Positions 11,916-17,431 of a stretch of 64,000 bases of DNA are shown here, piece by piece (position 1 is the stretch's first letter; the number at the start of each line of letters is the position of its first letter). The position numbers and the translations under genes were made by a program. The notes below the pieces were generated by a model that had not been told where the DNA came from, made no database searches, and worked only from the letters and a program-made list of their open reading frames with translations. The stretch is from Dehalococcoidia bacterium (GTDB taxonomy: Bacteria > Chloroflexota > Dehalococcoidia > Plut-88900), in contig CBDFLQ010000007.1 in assembly GCA_965249275.1 (NCBI GenBank), positions 96,001-160,000 on the forward strand, read 5' to 3'.

Positions 11916-12821
11916 GTGATGGGCCAACTGGTAAGCCTCCTCGCCGCGATGCGGCCCAGGCAGTGGACCAAGAACTTTGTTGTCTTTCTGCCCATGGCCT
12001 TCACCATCAACCTGGCCTGGGACCCGGGCAACGTCGACGAGGTGCTCGATGTCCTGGCTTCAGCGGCGTCGGCCTTCGGCCTCTTCTGCCTCCTCTCCTC
12101 CGCCGTCTACCTCCTCAACGACCTCGCTGACGCCAAAAAAGACCGCCTGCATCCGAAGAAGGCGTTGAGGGGCGTGGCCTCGGGCCGGTTGTCCAAGGGG
12201 CTTGCCGCATTCGCTGCGATGCTCTTTGTCGGTGCGGCGCTGCCCCTCGGCTTTCTTGTCGAAGTCAGCTACGGCTGGGCCCAGCTTGCCTATGTGGGCA
12301 TATCTGTCGTTTACATAAGCATAGTGCGGCAGCTTGTCATTCTCGACGTGTTCGCCATATCTGCAGGGTTTATCGTGAGAGCCGCCGCCGGGGCCCTGGT
12401 CATTTCCGCCGACCCCTCACCTTGGCTGTACATCTGCACGGGGCTCGGGGCCCTCTTCATCGGGTTTGCCAAGCGGCGGCAGGAGATGCTGACGCTGAAA
12501 GAGGATGGAACGGAGCATCGGGCCAGCCTGGGCGGCTACTCCCTCCCGATGCTCGACCATCTCATCACTATGCTCATGGCCTCCACCCTCATCGCATACA
12601 TCCTCTACACCTTCACCGCCGACAACCTGCCTCCCAACGATGCGATGATGTTCACCATTCCCTTTGTTGCCTTTGGCATAGCCCGCTACTTCTACCTGAT
12701 TCATGCCAAACAGGCGGGAGGCAACCCCGAGGATATCCTGCTCAAGGACGTGCCGATACTGCTGTCAGTGGCGGGCTGGCTGGCCGCAACCGTAGGCATC
12801 CTGTTAGCGTTTCGGGGGTGA
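11916..12821 (+). CDS. UbiA-family prenyltransferase (decaprenyl-phosphate phosphoribosyltransferase-like)
   Basis: RPRQWTKN, YLLNDLADAKKDRLHPKK, ILDVFAI, KRRQE. Confidence 0.9.
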   Translation: MMGQLVSLLAAMRPRQWTKNFVVFLPMAFTINLAWDPGNVDEVLDVLASAASAFGLFCLLSSAVYLLNDLADAKKDRLHPKKALRGVASGRLSKGLAAFAAMLFVGAALPLGFLVEVSYGWAQLAYVGISVVYISIVRQLVILDVFAISAGFIVRAAAGALVISADPSPWLYICTGLGALFIGFAKRRQEMLTLKEDGTEHRASLGGYSLPMLDHLITMLMASTLIAYILYTFTADNLPPNDAMMFTIPFVAFGIARYFYLIHAKQAGGNPEDILLKDVPILLSVAGWLAATVGILLAFRG

Positions 12822-12876
12822 GGTGGTCCCCCACCCCCGACTCCCCATTCTGTCAACGAATTACCTAACACTTACA

Positions 12877-12903
12877 ATTCCCGTGCCCCGACACGGGAAT
12901 CCA
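12877..12903 (+). repeat. Palindromic repeat family C ((GTC)ATTCC...GGAATC)
   Basis: ATTCCCGTG-CCCCGA-CACGGGAAT-CCA. Related copies at 16657-16685, 23820-23847, 39714-39740, 59246-59271, 59379-59406. Confidence 0.6.
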
Positions 12904-13044
12904 TCCCAGCCCCCAGCCCCGAAACCCGCGGCCTACACAGGTCTTCATGGCTCCGGCGAGTAAGTGGACGGCGAAGAACAGCTTTGGTACACCGCTGGAA
13001 GCGCCTATACTTTGGTGTAACTACTGAGGGACAAGAAGGGGTTT

Positions 13045-14082
13045 ATGCGATTATTGCTCATATTGCCAGTCTTTTTCCTGTTGGCCTGTTCCTCCGCCCC
13101 CGCAGACTCCCCTGATCCCGACCAGTACCTGGACCGCGTCCGCCGGATGCACGCAGAGAACCGGGCGCAGTTCGAGCATCTAACCACTGTCACGTTTGCC
13201 CCACCCGTTGCACAAAGTAGCAGCGACCCGAACGAGCCCAATCCCACTTACGACGAATGGAAATTGTATGTCTTGTCAGGACTTCTCCCGCACCTCAATG
13301 ACCTGTCCAAGACCAGCACGTTCTTGTGGGCACAGCTTAACGAGCTAAACACTATGGCAGTGCCGGAGGAACACACTGGCCTTCACGCCGACTTGGTCAC
13401 CATGTGGGAGGCAGGAATAGCTTGGGTGGATGAGCGGCTTAGGACTGCGCAACAGGCGGCAACATACCTGCAGGCCGACGATTGGGAGGGGTTTGACGAA
13501 GCCAATATGGTTGATGAGGAAGATATGGAGAGGGCACACACGTTAATTGACCGCCACGTAGACGCTGTTAATCGGGTGAACTTCGTCCTGTTTGGTACGC
13601 CGGAACCCGAGCCGTTTGACATTTCAGGGTCGTCCACCGCATGGGCCCTAACGCCTCTTCCCGATGTGCCCACCGCCACACTGGGGCCAATCTCCCAGCT
13701 CACCCCGACAGCAGCGTATGTAGATCCCATGGTCCGAAAGGAAGCAATACGGAGGTATGCTAATGATGCCTGCGGCCCCGAAAAGTTGGACTATCCGGCT
13801 ATTGGCTGGCCTAAACTGGCAGGTGAACTTTCATGGGCAATTTCACTGTTGAGGTATGACCCGCCGCGAGGGTTGGGGGGCTTCCGAGATGTCTTATGGG
13901 ACTACTACGAGACCCTAAAAATATTTGCCGAAGAACAAGACCGTTCTCTCAAGGTTGATCAGGCCTTGTTCTCGTCTGACCCGGACGTTCTGCAAAAGCG
14001 GATGGAAGTAGAAAAGACGGTCAGTGCCCTGCCGGAGTCCGACCGTCAAGTGCTGAACGACGCGGGATGCACTTTCTCGTGA
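13045..14082 (+). CDS. Hypothetical lipoprotein
   Basis: Signal peptide with lipobox LLAC; 345-aa ORF; no recognised catalytic motif. Confidence 0.75.
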   Translation: MRLLLILPVFFLLACSSAPADSPDPDQYLDRVRRMHAENRAQFEHLTTVTFAPPVAQSSSDPNEPNPTYDEWKLYVLSGLLPHLNDLSKTSTFLWAQLNELNTMAVPEEHTGLHADLVTMWEAGIAWVDERLRTAQQAATYLQADDWEGFDEANMVDEEDMERAHTLIDRHVDAVNRVNFVLFGTPEPEPFDISGSSTAWALTPLPDVPTATLGPISQLTPTAAYVDPMVRKEAIRRYANDACGPEKLDYPAIGWPKLAGELSWAISLLRYDPPRGLGGFRDVLWDYYETLKIFAEEQDRSLKVDQALFSSDPDVLQKRMEVEKTVSALPESDRQVLNDAGCTFS

Positions 14083-14177
14083 CAAGTAAGGGCCGCTATC
14101 TCCCCAGTCTTTGTGCGCGCCGTGACCATTGAACAGGAATACGGCGACAGGCTGGAGAGGTTATTGGAGGCGGTGGA

Positions 14178-14585
14178 GTGCCCGAACTAATGAAGGAGAC
14201 CGAGAAGAGCTTGACTAACAAACTGGCAATAGGAGCTGGCGTGGTGGCCCTCATCCCTTACCTCGCACTGCTGTCCACCTCGGGTATCAGTGCGTTTCTG
14301 CTTACGACGCCCCTCTGGTGGAGCGCGGAGTCATGGGGGGCGTCCGTGACCATCGGCTCGACGGTCGGGATGGTGGGGGTCGTGGCCTCCGCCCTGGTTC
14401 TCTGGTCGTCCCGTCACGAGGGACGGCGCTCGGGCCTGGGCCTGGCGCTGGGGGGTCTCTACGCCATCCCCCTGATCGTCTCACCCTTCGGACTGGCCCC
14501 TTTCCACCTATTCACAGGCCCGGTACTCCTGGTACTGGTGGCGGCGGTCGTCAACCATCGACGGAAATTCGCCGAATTAAACTGA
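14178..14585 (+). CDS. Hypothetical membrane protein (about 4 TM)
   Basis: GGAGG RBS upstream; four hydrophobic segments. Confidence 0.65.
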   Translation: MPELMKETEKSLTNKLAIGAGVVALIPYLALLSTSGISAFLLTTPLWWSAESWGASVTIGSTVGMVGVVASALVLWSSRHEGRRSGLGLALGGLYAIPLIVSPFGLAPFHLFTGPVLLVLVAAVVNHRRKFAELN

Positions 14586-14693
14586 CGCACTACCCCTTGG
14601 CGCGGGTGCATGCCTCTGTTCTTCTCTCTCCCTCTACCCCTGCCCGTAAGGGCGACCGGCGGGGCCTCCCCCCCAAAAAGTGACACGAACCCA

Positions 14694-14723
14694 TTGACTA
14701 ACCTAGTACACATATTCTATATT
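14694..14723 (+). promoter_or_regulatory. Promoter with LexA-like box upstream of the terminase pair
   Basis: TTGACT (14694-14699) and TATATT (14718-14723). AGTAC-ACAT-ATTCT (14705-14718) is two mismatches from AGAAC-N4-GTTCT and overlaps the -10. Confidence 0.5.
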
Positions 14724-14806
14724 GCACTCCAACTCGGGCCCGCATAAGGGCCGGGCCCCTTGCCGAAACCAACTGAATTGCTGAAAAGACCGAAAGGAAC
14801 TGCCGT

Positions 14807-15220
14807 ATGACCAAACGACCCCGCTACCCCTCCCGGACCCCTAAGCCCGATTCAAGTGGCCCTTGGGAAGACTCGCTCGATCAGGCCGGCCTCCCCGGTG
14901 GCCCCTATTACTCCGCCAGGCTTAGTAATCTCGAATCGAGACAAAGACTTGGCCGAGCTTCCAAAGTCCAGGGCGTTGACCAGGAACTCGCTATCCTCCG
15001 CTGGCGCCTTGAGGAATTGATTGCCAAGGAAGACAACAAAGAAACCAAAGACCACTCCCTAGTGCTCAAGACCATCGAACTCATAGTTCGAGCCTACTCC
15101 GCCAAGGCACGCTCCTCCGACGATTCCAACGCCCCCACCGAAAAAGGCATCGAAAACCTTCTGCGGGACGCCTCTCGCAAGTTCGGACTAAAGACAATCC
15201 CCTGGAACTCCACCCACTAG
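14807..15220 (+). CDS. Putative terminase small subunit-like protein
   Basis: 137 aa, ends 8 nt upstream of the large subunit. Basic N-terminus and helical core (YYSARL...GVDQELAILRWRLEELI). Call is mainly positional. Confidence 0.55.
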   Translation: MTKRPRYPSRTPKPDSSGPWEDSLDQAGLPGGPYYSARLSNLESRQRLGRASKVQGVDQELAILRWRLEELIAKEDNKETKDHSLVLKTIELIVRAYSAKARSSDDSNAPTEKGIENLLRDASRKFGLKTIPWNSTH

Positions 15221-15228
15221 AGAACGCC

Positions 15229-16617
15229 TTGATAGACATTTATTCCCTAAGGCCCTACCAGCTGCAGATAGCCAAAGCTATACTGAGTAGCGTTCAGGAC
15301 GGCATGGGCTTCTCCTTCTCCGTCATGATCGCCCGTCAGGGCGGCAAGAACGAGCTCTCCGCCTGGCTTGAGGCCGTCCTCCTCTCCGCCGCCTCCCACG
15401 ACGGCGGCAGCGCCATCAAGGCCACCCCCACCTTCCACCCCCAGGCCCGGATCAGCATCTCTCGCCTCCAGGACACCCTTCGGCGCAGCCGCATCTATTA
15501 TGAATTCCAACACGGCAACCTCTTCGCCGTAGGCCGCGCCCGCCAGCTCTTCCTCAGCTCCCACCCCACCAGCAACGTCCTCGGCAACACCGCCAGTCTC
15601 CTCCTCGAGATCGACGAGTCCCAGGACGTCTCCCCCGATAAATTCAACCGCGACTTCATGCCTATGGGCGCCTCCTCCAACGCAACCACCGTCCACTACG
15701 GCACCGCATGGGACGACCATTCCCTCCTCGAGCAGGTCAAACAGTCCAACCTCGATCTCCAACGCACCGACGGCATCCGTCGCCACTTCGAGTTCGACTG
15801 GCAGGCCGTCGCTCGCTACAACCCTCACTACAAGCGCTACGTAGAGGCCGAACGTCTCCGGCTCGGTAGCGATCATCCATTGTTCCGCTCTCAGTATTGC
15901 CTGGTTCCCGTGACCGGCAAAGGAAGGTTCATCGACCATAACAGGCAGGCCCTGCTGCGGGGCAGCCACCTCCGAATCAGCGCCCCCGTCAAGGGGCGTA
16001 CTTACGTCGCCGGCGTAGACCTTGCCGGCGAGTCCGAACAGTCGGACAACCTCCAGTTCAAAGCAAACGCACCATTTAAGGATTCCACCGTCGTCACCAT
16101 CGGAGAGCTCCGGTCTACGAACGCCGGTCACGGGTCCCCGCTCCCATCCCTTAGGGTGGTCGAGCACTTCTGGTGGACGGGACTGCCCCAAACCGAGAAT
16201 TTCTCGCGTCTCCTCCACATCCTCTCGGAAGTCTGGGGCTGTCGCAGAGTCGTCGTCGATGCAACGGGCATCGGAGCAGGCGTCGCCGATTTCTTGCGCA
16301 AATCTATCGGGCCTTCCATCGTCAAGCCCTTCACCTTTACCGCCCGCAGCAAATCGGACCTCGGCTTCGACCTCCTCGCCGCCATCAACTCCGGCAGGCT
16401 CAGGATGTACAAGCCCGACGGCTCCCCCGAGTCCACCGAGTTCTGGTCCCAAATCTCCAAAGCAAGGAGGACCGTAAGACCCAACCAGACCATCAACTTC
16501 TTCGTAGACCCCTCCCAAGGCCACGACGACTTCCTGTCATCCCTCGCCCTCCTCGTCAAAGCCTCCGAATACATCCCCCGCCGCGCCTCCGGTCGCCTGC
16601 GAGAGGGCTATGAATAA
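15229..16617 (+). CDS. Phage terminase large subunit-like ATPase/nuclease
   Basis: Q-motif LRPYQ, Walker A ARQGGKNE, Walker B LLEIDESQD, coupling motif YGTA, RNase H-like nuclease motifs AGVDLAG, VVVDATGIG and HDD. Confidence 0.85.
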   Translation: MIDIYSLRPYQLQIAKAILSSVQDGMGFSFSVMIARQGGKNELSAWLEAVLLSAASHDGGSAIKATPTFHPQARISISRLQDTLRRSRIYYEFQHGNLFAVGRARQLFLSSHPTSNVLGNTASLLLEIDESQDVSPDKFNRDFMPMGASSNATTVHYGTAWDDHSLLEQVKQSNLDLQRTDGIRRHFEFDWQAVARYNPHYKRYVEAERLRLGSDHPLFRSQYCLVPVTGKGRFIDHNRQALLRGSHLRISAPVKGRTYVAGVDLAGESEQSDNLQFKANAPFKDSTVVTIGELRSTNAGHGSPLPSLRVVEHFWWTGLPQTENFSRLLHILSEVWGCRRVVVDATGIGAGVADFLRKSIGPSIVKPFTFTARSKSDLGFDLLAAINSGRLRMYKPDGSPESTEFWSQISKARRTVRPNQTINFFVDPSQGHDDFLSSLALLVKASEYIPRRASGRLREGYE

Positions 16618-16694
16618 GCCCCCACCCCCGAGGGGAGCCTGTCCGCCTCAGGCGGATCATTCCGAGGCCCCCCCCCGAGGAATCTGGGGCGGGG

Positions 16695-16741
16695 CATTCC
16701 GCTCGCCCTGAGCAGAGTCGAAGGGTCTCAAGAGCGGAATG
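16695..16741 (+). repeat. Palindromic repeat family A (CCGCTC..CTGAG..TCGAAG..GAGCGG)
   Basis: CATTCCGCTC/GAGCGGAATG stem. Copies at 46061-46185 (two), 47624-47656, 49415-49447, 50558-50590, 54318-54385, 57715-57748, 59287-59320. Confidence 0.8.
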
Positions 16742-16756
16742 GGCGGGGTGTCCCAT

Positions 16757-16808
16757 CCCCCCTCTCCCTTATTGGCCCTAAGGGAGAGGGGGATCAAGGG
16801 GGTGAGGG
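16757..16808 (+). repeat. Palindromic repeat family B (CCCTCTCCC..GGGAGAGGG..GGGTGAGGG)
   Basis: Copies at 49459-49497, 50600-50638, 55382-55420; interrupted copies near 47570 and 54243. Confidence 0.8.
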
Positions 16809-16838
16809 TTATCCCGGGGCGGAGGCCGGGTGGTGAGA

Positions 16839-16867
16839 TTGACAGGGAGAGGGTGGCAAACTATAAT
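16839..16867 (+). promoter_or_regulatory. Consensus sigma70 promoter of the rpmH operon
   Basis: TTGACA (16839-16844), exactly 17 nt, TATAAT (16862-16867). Confidence 0.9.
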
Positions 16868-16893
16868 CGGCATTCCTAAACGAGTCTGAAAAC

Positions 16894-17031
16894 ATGCCTA
16901 AAAGAACCTACCAACCTAAGAGGTTGCCCCGAAAGAGGAAGCACGGGTTCCGTGCCCGAATGAGTACCCGAGGCGGACGTGACGTTATACACCGCCGAAG
17001 GGCCAAGGGCAGGACCAGTCTGAACGTTTAG
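16894..17031 (+). CDS. rpmH: 50S ribosomal protein L34
   Basis: Not in ORF track (45 aa): [45 protein letters not shown]. Confidence 0.97.
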
Positions 17032-17071
17032 GGCTTACAATTTTGAACACTAAAGAAAGGGGAGCCCGCTG

Positions 17072-17431
17072 CTGAAGGGTACGGCCAGGGATCGAAGGCT
17101 CAAAAAGAGCCGCGACTTTGATCGGGTCCTCAGGAGGGGCAAGCGCAGGGCAAACGGGTTTCTGGTACTCGGCGCCATTCCCAACGGCCTTGAAGTCAGC
17201 AGGTTCGGCTTCTCGGTCGGAAAGAGAGTCGGCAACGCTGTCCGGCGGAACCTAGTAAAGCGTAGACTGCGGAACATCATGACTGAGCTGTGCGGCCAGG
17301 ACGGATGGGATCTCGTAGTCATCGCCAGAAAGACCGCCTCAGAGGCCGGATACCGTGACCTTAAAATGGCATTGACCGGCCTGTTGCGATCGAGCGGCCT
17401 GCTCGGTAAACGTAACGCCAGCGCAGTTTAA
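17072..17431 (+). CDS. rnpA: Ribonuclease P protein component (apparent CTG start)
   Basis: Not in ORF track. RLKKSRDFDRV...RFGFSVGKRVGNAVRRNLVKRRLR. In-frame TAA at 17051 leaves only CTG codons (17069/17072) behind the AAGGGGAG RBS. Confidence 0.92.
   Translation: MKGTARDRRLKKSRDFDRVLRRGKRRANGFLVLGAIPNGLEVSRFGFSVGKRVGNAVRRNLVKRRLRNIMTELCGQDGWDLVVIARKTASEAGYRDLKMALTGLLRSSGLLGKRNASAV

Follow-up and report, generated by a model that had tools for sequence, protein, structure and literature searches.

A terminase cassette beside rpmH in a Dehalococcoidia bacterium belongs to an exchangeable family and may serve a podovirus-like head module

We analysed a stretch of 64,000 nucleotides (the window) from the genome of a Dehalococcoidia bacterium (contig CBDFLQ010000007.1), in which a gene for a small protein and a gene for a large terminase (TerL) form a cassette next to rpmH. 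Comparison with related genomes indicates that this pair can be lost and exchanged and is one member of a multi-copy family, not a unique and vertically fixed pair, and that the rpmH-side cassette is a genus-specific second copy. Gene content and order point to a head-and-neck gene set, here called the module, that is fixed in the chromosome of most of the Dehalococcoidia sampled. We tentatively read the window pair, with a confidence a little short of even, as a spare packaging cassette under SOS-type control that belongs to a grounded podovirus-like module, which would be either cryptic or similar to a gene transfer agent (GTA).

The cassette and its large terminase

The cassette comprises the following features.

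14680-14723, + strand: promoter, with upstream motif GTGACACGAACC, -35 element TTGACT (14694-14699) and -10 element TATATT (14718-14723)
14704-14719, + strand: dyad TAGTACACATATTCTA with core GTAC-N4-ATTC, within the promoter spacer; candidate LexA-type operator
14807-15220, + strand: small protein of 137 amino acids, ATG start; small-terminase-like by position only
15229-16617, + strand: TerL, 462 amino acids, TTG start; predicted N-terminal ATPase and C-terminal RNase-H-like nuclease
15806-16345, + strand: TerL segment (codons about 194-372) of which decayed copies are scattered through the genome, as seen by tblastn and blastn

An initial annotation, made from the sequence alone, had described two intact open reading frames at this place, and both are confirmed: neither contains an internal stop, and 8 nt separate the small gene from TerL. 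An open reading frame of 425 amino acids runs antisense within TerL, as is usual for G+C-rich DNA. The host-like, C-rich codon use reported for the pair also holds, as its third-position G+C content (GC3, 0.80) and third-position C content (C3, 0.61) fall within the ranges of 20 other window genes (0.59-0.82 and 0.22-0.62).

TerL has no Pfam or NCBIfam match. Its three large-terminase matches in PHROGs are weak (2.6e-6, 3.8e-6 and 2.5e-4), and PF17289 is precomputed on 3 of the 120 listed TerL relatives. The AlphaFold model (predicted local distance difference test, pLDDT, 88.3) matches the full-length large terminases of HK97, D6E, Sf6 and T4 in Foldseek (E 3e-17 to 9e-14), and its nuclease part matches nuclease domains of Thermus phages (template modelling score 0.74-0.79), to which TerL also has a weak profile match (E 0.013-0.02). 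In a hidden Markov model alignment with chain 5tge, the GHDD of TerL falls on the GHDD of the chain. Residues R36, Q37, G39, K40 and N41, E127, D129 and E130, Y157, G158 and T159, D264, D344, and D433 and D434 are invariant in all 32 aligned TerL relatives. These residues, together with the strings RQGGKN (P-loop-like), LLEIDESQ (acidic pair) and YGT, presumably represent the Walker A/B-type and nuclease motifs of terminases. By predicted fold and conserved residues, the 462-amino-acid protein is thus a complete two-domain large terminase, and the full set of ATPase and nuclease motifs originally read from its sequence stands.

The model shares its two-domain ATPase and nuclease fold with the solved terminases of HK97, D6E, Sf6, T4 and the Thermus phages P74-26/G20c (PDB 6z6d, 5oe8, 4idh, 3cpe and 5m1f). 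In contrast to these, the window protein (10-17% identical to them) is chromosomal and multi-copy and begins with TTG. The nearest terminase of a cultured phage, that of Bacillus phage vB_BboS-125, is only 31% identical, which agrees with the initial annotation.

The small protein may be a small terminase by position only. Its model (pLDDT 60.7) is helical after a disordered, basic, proline-rich N-terminus. A gene of its family lies 5′ of TerL in 9 of 15 loci of relatives, either directly or across one gene for a protein of ~75 amino acids. We found 24 database relatives. ESM Atlas returned unnamed Chloroflexota clusters at 0.96, and the named matches, all below 0.9, are leads only (T5 small terminase, 0.83; DUF1804, 0.81). 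A complex prediction for TerL and the small protein scored 0.00 against a mark of 0.32, which counts neither for nor against binding.

A head gene module in the Dehalococcoidia

Our comparison set consisted of 41 Dehalococcoidia genomes, including 8 sister genomes of the same genus; the genome that contains the window is designated G000. We identified TerL relatives in 33 of the 41 genomes, a portal in 34 and a capsid in 30, and the three are jointly missing from the same 6 genomes. Portal and capsid are mostly single copy, and they lie far apart or on separate contigs in G001, G016, G017, G030 and G037. More than 4000 database proteins match TerL; where these carry a name, it is that of a hypothetical protein from Dehalococcoidia or Chloroflexi. 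Among species-representative genomes, a TerL relative is encoded in at least 505 stretches, and the 80 that were retained are all labelled as metagenome-assembled genomes of Dehalococcoidia or Chloroflexota or as lower taxa of these (such as Chloroflexia, Dehalococcoidales or Dehalococcoides).

Gene order in other genera runs from the small protein through a ~75-amino-acid membrane-like protein, TerL, a helix-turn-helix (HTH) protein, the portal, a scaffold, an HK97-type capsid and an SU10-type adaptor to a ~660-amino-acid tail-like protein and a ~71-amino-acid protein. The portal is SPP1-type (PF05133, 2.8e-16; phrog_64, 5.7e-32), and the capsid (phrog_212, 2.8e-77) and adaptor (PF24175, 3.7e-11) are assigned by similar matches. 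The scaffold-like protein is a coiled coil, and the ~660-amino-acid protein has a weak tail match (phrog_1887, 1.6e-5).

All eight sister genomes contain one primary locus, which consists of HIT, HD, the small protein, the ~75-amino-acid protein, TerL, HTH, portal, scaffold, capsid, adaptor and the tail-like gene; in each of them the portal adjoins or lies near one TerL copy. The sister genomes carry 1-4 full-length cassette copies plus fragments, with two further cassettes each in G004 and G007. The pair is therefore not the orphan that it had been called, as it belongs to a multi-copy family. The proposal that its head genes lie elsewhere fared better: a portal-scaffold-capsid-adaptor set sits at another locus in 8 of 8 sister genomes.

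Host-type genes occur inside the module of relatives, including those for an extracytoplasmic function (ECF) sigma factor, an anti-sigma factor, and cupin, ankyrin, MFS and M60 peptidase proteins. At the primary locus of G005, the genes for the ECF sigma factor and a zf-HC2 anti-sigma factor (together L028:2856-4473), along with one for a cupin, separate the portal from the scaffold-capsid operon. Homologues of the sigma/anti-sigma pair, identified by sequence clustering (the Pfam scan concerned the G005 pair only), occupy the same place in G011 (L014:4951-6350). The pair could possibly regulate the module. Upstream in G005, a 653-amino-acid ankyrin-repeat protein (L028:10110-12071) is encoded between the terminase operon and the HIT and HD genes.

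The head module is decaying in some lineages. Portal and capsid are in pieces in G014 (L020), and the portal of G015 (contig C199) is present with a TGA stop and as fragments.

In the window's own genome, a second cassette (76% identity) is cut by a contig end (C5:3-1328), and it represents the primary locus because HIT and HD adjoin it. The assembly is 87% complete and breaks inside this primary TerL copy (start of C5) and at a promoter-bearing repeat (start of C7). A solo small-terminase-like gene, 37% identical to that of the window and with no TerL beside it, is located at C6:411243-411650 (L221:744-1151).

Cassette exchange at the rpmH locus

The window cassette is part of a variable block, bounded and filled as follows.

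12815-16836: variable 4.0-kb block, from the UbiA-family gene to the rpmH promoter, with a lipoprotein-like gene, a membrane gene, the promoter, the small gene, TerL and REP-like repeats
13045-14082, + strand: 345-amino-acid protein, no family assigned; the N-terminus resembles a lipoprotein signal in our own reading of the sequence
14178-14585, + strand: 135-amino-acid hydrophobic protein from the open reading frame list, no family assigned, 5′ of the cassette
16617-16836: repetitive extragenic palindromic (REP)-like repeats, including a perfect 14-bp stem at 16758-16792 (inverted repeat I7)
16839-16867, + strand: rpmH promoter TTGACA-17-TATAAT from a consensus scan, belonging to the host operon that bounds the block
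16894-17031, + strand: rpmH, by sequence reading

The block flanks are housekeeping genes that are syntenic in the sister genomes. We found the block at the site between the UbiA-family gene and rpmH in seven of eight sister genomes. In the eighth, G003, the same flanks (92-93% nucleotide identity) enclose no cassette and are spaced 948 bp apart, compared with 4022 bp in the window. With that of the window included, there are 8 cassettes at the rpmH site, of which 4 run along ubiA and rpmH and 4 are inverted. An inverted-repeat scan found no long inverted repeats flanking the block, and the inversions are thus not explicable by flanking repeats.

The clearest allele replacement concerns G002, which has an RpoB fragment identical to that of the window's genome and rpmH-site flanks that are 98-99.7% identical. 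Between these flanks lies an inverted cassette with a nearly identical promoter, a TerL that is 73% identical and a small protein that is 41% identical. A divergent allele between near-identical flanks implies that cassettes are exchanged faster than species diverge. On the genus tree, TerL copies are not grouped by locus. These observations contradict the initial annotation of a pair kept vertically at this locus, where the cassette is absent from G003, inverted in half of the genus genomes that bear the block and represented by a 73%-identical allele in G002.

Other block genes vary as well. The ~75-amino-acid protein gene is retained in 3 of 8 rpmH-locus cassettes and missing from that of the window. 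At the primary locus of G003 and the rpmH locus of G001, homologues of the 345-amino-acid protein gene adjoin the small gene, and this protein travels with some cassettes. It has no match in Pfam, PHROG or NCBIfam and nothing above 0.88 in ESM Atlas, and its ratio of nonsynonymous to synonymous substitution rates (omega) against the G005 orthologue is 0.40. The 135-amino-acid protein has NCBIfam matches at chance level only and a 38%-identical homologue at the equivalent position in G003.

The REP-like repeats are present in dozens of copies across the genome. Several REP-like families also occur near 12881-12895, and hence at both block edges. Downstream of rpmH, the rnpA frame (17069-17431) is open from about 17069 and its first ATG, GTG or TTG is found only at 17279; the likely start codon of rnpA is a non-standard one, CTG at 17069 or 17072. 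An Rfam scan of the window returned tRNA-Ala only.

Matches to public sequencing runs are to assembled contigs and say nothing on expression or level, and regions that they leave uncovered carry no information. A contig of run X1 joins 12803 to 16859, a weak hint only, as its shorter side measures 24 letters. Run X9, labelled a viral metagenome, contains a ~96%-identical relative of the pair plus the rpmH region; because the two are similar in depth, there is no signal of enrichment. RNA run X20 contains only short pieces (15757-15936 and 16147-16264), both inside the repeated part of TerL.

Promoter, candidate operator and promoter-bearing repeats

The TTGACT-18-TATATT promoter (14694-14723) is one of 2 consensus matches in 14000-17200, where 0.5 were expected, and by its sequence is a good sigma-70 match. 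The pair thus appears to have its own promoter and to lie beside palindromes and the rpmH operon, as originally described. Within the spacer, the dyad TAGTACACATATTCTA reads GTAC-ACAT-ATTC and agrees at 14 of 16 bases with TAGAACACATATCCTA upstream of recA. It has two mismatches to GAAC-N4-GTTC, the LexA consensus of Gram-positive bacteria and Chloroflexus. The genome encodes LexA (180.9 bits against a cut-off of 110.95), and the region upstream of lexA carries AGAACGCCCGTTCC (GAAC-GCCC-GTTC, type GAAC-N4-GTTC). Dyads of other cassettes read GTAC-N4-GTTC or GCAC-N4-GTGC, and promoter copies that we read by eye have [GA][AT]AC-N4-GT[AGT]C at the same spot with a variable N4. The window dyad is a plausible candidate for a LexA operator, and only a candidate; the LexA-like box first noticed here is reasonable to that degree.

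Cassettes have the promoter, the leader and the Shine-Dalgarno region in common. Two close sister genomes, G005 and G002, show this promoter type 5′ of three transcription units: the small gene at the primary locus, the small gene at the rpmH locus, and the scaffold-capsid operon. In these two sisters, the proposed search for dispersed head genes with the same control region thus had a positive outcome. The composite motif GTGACACG[AG]ACC..TTGAC occurs at 29 places in the window's genome. TerL-like sequence lies 3′ of 8 of these, comprising two full cassettes and six fragments.

We observed decayed mid-TerL copies fused 3′ of the cassette promoter and the first small-gene codons (C6:946494, C5:735580, C7:724605, C6:128975 and others; L218). 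Some TerL fragments then carry a copy of the ~45-nt sequence that precedes the window promoter (14621-14667). TerL matches number 8-36 per genome in the sister genomes and 1-2 in three other genera of the same family.

At least 12 of the other motif places head a dispersed repeat of ~600 nt (C7:460844, C6:500069, C5:644792 and at least nine more; L216, L217), of which the window contains none. This repeat is non-coding, because its indels are not multiples of three. It is very stably folded, with minimum free energy z-scores of -5.5 to -7.1 against mononucleotide shuffles; the fold has 147 consensus pairs, 6 of which are changed on both sides, and a 14-15-bp closing stem. Rfam gave nothing credible in four repeat loci. 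Contig C7 starts inside a repeat related to this promoter-bearing kind.

Selection on the cassette and the head genes

Against the G005 orthologues, omega is 0.29 for the window TerL and 0.37-0.40 for the small gene, compared with 0.01-0.18 for seven neighbours (the rpmH and rnpA rows were left out). The synonymous distance (dS) of the window TerL is 0.12, inside the neighbours' range of 0.04-0.35. At 0.29, the intact large gene is under purifying selection, which accords with the initial annotation. Within the genus, omega is 0.06-0.14 for the portal, 0.14 for the capsid and 0.32-0.35 for the primary-locus TerL, with 0.05-0.08 for the flanking HIT gene and 0.19-0.22 for HD. Identities follow the same pattern (TerL, 77-79%; small protein, about 35-55%; portal, 85-96%; capsid, 91%). 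Judged from these rates, the head genes are clearly maintained and the terminase is the fast-moving part. The terminase is usually the most conserved phage gene, and the pattern here is the reverse.

The pair could also be a decaying duplicate. In that case the terminase genes of an old, grounded prophage would have been copied recently and spread by repeat-mediated recombination, and this copy would have no function and would be turning into another fragment like the many already present. The own genome contains 18 partial TerL-like stretches with P/S/R-rich translations, omega is raised relative to the neighbours, the block is absent from G003, the window/G005 TerL lineage sits on a long stem branch (0.26) and the ~75-amino-acid protein gene has been lost here. 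We nevertheless consider this explanation rather unlikely, as omega stays well below 1 over 462 codons, the G005 orthologue is intact at the above dS, the invariant motif positions are all kept, and the promoter, leader and Shine-Dalgarno region are conserved. Moreover, all 22 full-length TerL rows (the genus plus one outgroup) are free of stops.

Descent of the module

The mean distance between capsids across families (0.355) is near that of an RpoB fragment (0.313), and the capsid is therefore about as conserved as RpoB at this scale. Distances of capsid, portal and TerL correlate even where the genes are dispersed (Mantel r: capsid-portal, 0.85; portal-TerL, 0.70; capsid-TerL, 0.60). The TerL tree has the main RpoB split for 19 of 21 genomes, plus several inner clades; these trees cover 21 of the 33 TerL-positive genomes, with G021 and G023 left out for want of an RpoB match. 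HIT/HD synteny is present in 4 of 15 loci, from two families. When one genome per genus was compared with RpoB, the portal alone gave a significant Mantel correlation (r=0.47, p=0.025). Vertical descent of the module is only partly supported.

The same co-history bears on whether TerL and its small partner might work without a capsid, as an SOS-induced DNA translocase and nuclease repurposed for repair or chromosome processing. The dyad resembles the recA box, the cassette occupies a housekeeping region beside rpmH, and the head genes are unseen in the window's own assembly. Yet TerL evolves together with portal and capsid (Mantel r 0.60-0.70), portal, scaffold and capsid are kept in 8 of 8 sister genomes, and the promoter type is common to cassettes and head genes in G005 and G002. 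The absence of the block from G003 would also be odd for a repair role, and we regard such an enzyme as very unlikely.

Phage-like contigs and the prophage question

We identified 140 TerL relatives in IMG/VR, which are 49-55% identical to the window TerL over the 80 contigs kept. Eight of 16 contigs inspected encode a tyrosine integrase. On L209, the contig that was scanned, a tyrosine integrase, an HNH endonuclease, a DNA methylase and a lectin-type fibre accompany a compact structural module, with the order small protein, TerL, portal, scaffold, capsid, adaptor and tail-like protein on phage-like contigs. L209, L201, L173, L171 and L188 are podophage-like contigs of about 17-23 kb, and all but L188 have the integrase. 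The integrase-bearing phage-like contigs measure about 14-22 kb and, from their gene content, look like genuine small temperate podophage-like genomes, which makes them candidate living phages of Dehalococcoidia. L209, L201 and L173 share the structural module with the chromosomal loci; they differ in integrase (8/16), HNH endonuclease, DNA methylase and lectin-type fibre, the first three of which are absent from the window and from all 41 loci retrieved from relatives (L013-L053), each examined to about 8 kb on either side of the gene.

The existence of these relatives raises the question of a complete inducible prophage in the window's own genome, and terminase genes behind a damage-type promoter are typical of temperate phages. 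At this locus the possibility is refuted, unless a closed assembly joins phage genes to it, and overall it is extremely unlikely. The block spans only 4 kb between housekeeping genes that are syntenic in the sister genomes. The window contains no integrase, the five PF00589 matches in the genome all being elsewhere, and the assembly has no capsid or portal. The absence of phage genes noted in the initial annotation is confirmed to this extent, with the limits that not every window open reading frame was scanned against phage libraries and att sites were not searched for.

Integrase-bearing contigs with the same structural module are also what one would expect if the extra pairs were a defence device. 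In such a scheme, they would not act on the cell's own capsids. Like phage satellites, they would instead make the capsids of a related, infecting podophage take up host or island DNA, blocking the phage and spreading host DNA. TerL and the small protein diverge much faster than portal and capsid, a pattern that an arms race would give, and several cassette alleles exist per genome. However, satellite hallmarks (integrase, replication genes) are absent near the cassette, and no phage of this genus turned up in the searches made. The cell's own head genes, under strong selection and behind the same promoter type, point instead to a self-contained system, and we judge capsid hijacking unlikely.

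A proposed spare packaging cassette

The reading that we favour, a spare cassette of a grounded podovirus-like module, implies the following sequence of events. The sigma-70-type promoter with its candidate LexA-type dyad would be derepressed upon DNA damage. The small protein would mark DNA, and TerL would dock on portal-bearing procapsids encoded at the other locus, pump DNA in by ATP hydrolysis and cleave it through its nuclease domain. The resulting particle would resemble either a GTA or a cryptic phage. In the genus, copies of the terminase cassette appear to have reached a hot spot next to rpmH as well as other sites; loci and species have exchanged alleles, and many copies have decayed to leave promoter-bearing fragments.

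Several observations weigh against this reading. First, the small protein has no Pfam, PHROG or NCBIfam match and no Foldseek match at E<=0.001 with its low-confidence model (pLDDT 60.7), so that the profile and structure searches once suggested for both frames yielded a terminase fold for TerL and neither family nor fold for its partner. Second, the own assembly contains no PF05065 capsid and no PF05133 portal, and searches with the portal, capsid, adaptor and scaffold of the clade found no relative in it. As the assembly is 87% complete and C5 ends inside the second TerL, these genes are out of view, but their presence is not shown. Third, the block is dispensable, being absent in G003, and the genome contains the 18 decayed, partial TerL-like stretches found by tblastn (blastn identities of 62-89%). 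Fourth, omega of the window pair is 2-30 times that of the seven neighbours, which fits relaxed constraint as well as diversification. Fifth, in the Mantel comparison with RpoB that used one genome per genus, neither TerL (r=0.20, p=0.12) nor capsid (r=0.20, p=0.23) was significant. Deep co-phylogeny of the module with its host therefore appears weak, and the agreement of the TerL tree with the RpoB tree lies in the main split and several inner clades. Finally, one clade of 14 rows, nested in the TerL tree beside G025, comprises G024, all 8 integrase-bearing contigs and 5 of the remaining 8 contigs inspected, an arrangement that leaves repeated lysogeny followed by decay as an alternative.

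Taken as a whole, the trees and gene content are best fitted by an old phage lineage that became grounded in the majority of Dehalococcoidia, with one order in which it may still be active. The initial interpretation is therefore right in part: the module looks domesticated, its head genes lie at another locus in the sister genomes, and its promoter is of a damage type. These data make it a real possibility that a particle system of viral origin has long been kept here and that its packaging cassettes can be swapped.

Comparison with known systems

GTAs, including RcGTA of Rhodobacter, BaGTA, VSH-1, Dd1 and VTA, are encoded by phage head and packaging genes that are fixed in the chromosome, away from any genes for integration or replication. 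Purifying selection and host-type regulation act on these genes, which in some cases are distributed over several loci. The Dehalococcoidia genes resemble them in being chromosomal, dispersed in places, under purifying selection and apparently under host-type regulation. The integrase, HNH endonuclease and DNA methylase of the phage-like contigs are absent from the fetched loci, the window contains no integrase, and the structural genes have the low omega expected of maintained genes (portal, 0.06-0.14; capsid, 0.14). In contrast to the GTAs, the Dehalococcoidia set resembles that of podoviruses, as it has an adaptor of SU10 type and a portal of SPP1 type and no tape-measure gene was seen. To our knowledge, all known GTAs are siphovirus-like, and we know of none with several exchangeable terminase cassettes.

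Capsid-forming phage-inducible chromosomal islands (cf-PICIs) have their own capsid and terminase genes and may depend on, or interfere with, a related phage. Unlike these islands, the Dehalococcoidia cassette and head genes have no integrase, regulator or replication module nearby, and their position is conserved across species. In the titles and opening parts of abstracts that formed our view of the literature, with subscription journals and supplements outside its scope, we found no published description of the module and no GTA described for the phylum.

Significance

A more exciting possibility is that cassette multiplicity has a function. Several exchangeable small-protein/TerL pairs, each behind one LexA-type promoter and a conserved leader that acts as a recombination anchor, might feed a single capsid set, with the cassette in use setting which DNA is packaged. 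Such a system could be a programmable GTA or an anti-phage capsid hijacker, and the dozens of promoter-bearing repeats (the TerL-derived fragments and the highly structured ~600-nt element) could help to control it, either as regulatory RNAs or as decoys for packaging. We regard this joint interpretation as distinctly unlikely.

In practical terms, virus-mining pipelines file chromosomal modules of this kind as viral contigs, as the 140 relatives in IMG/VR warn. Dehalococcoidia are widespread and hard to culture and include dehalogenating bacteria. If the reading of a spare cassette is correct, most of them would carry a long-kept, podovirus-derived particle system, which would provide a natural case of a packaging enzyme as a fast-evolving, multi-copy, swappable part and would allow genes to be exchanged among organisms in which other mobile elements are few.

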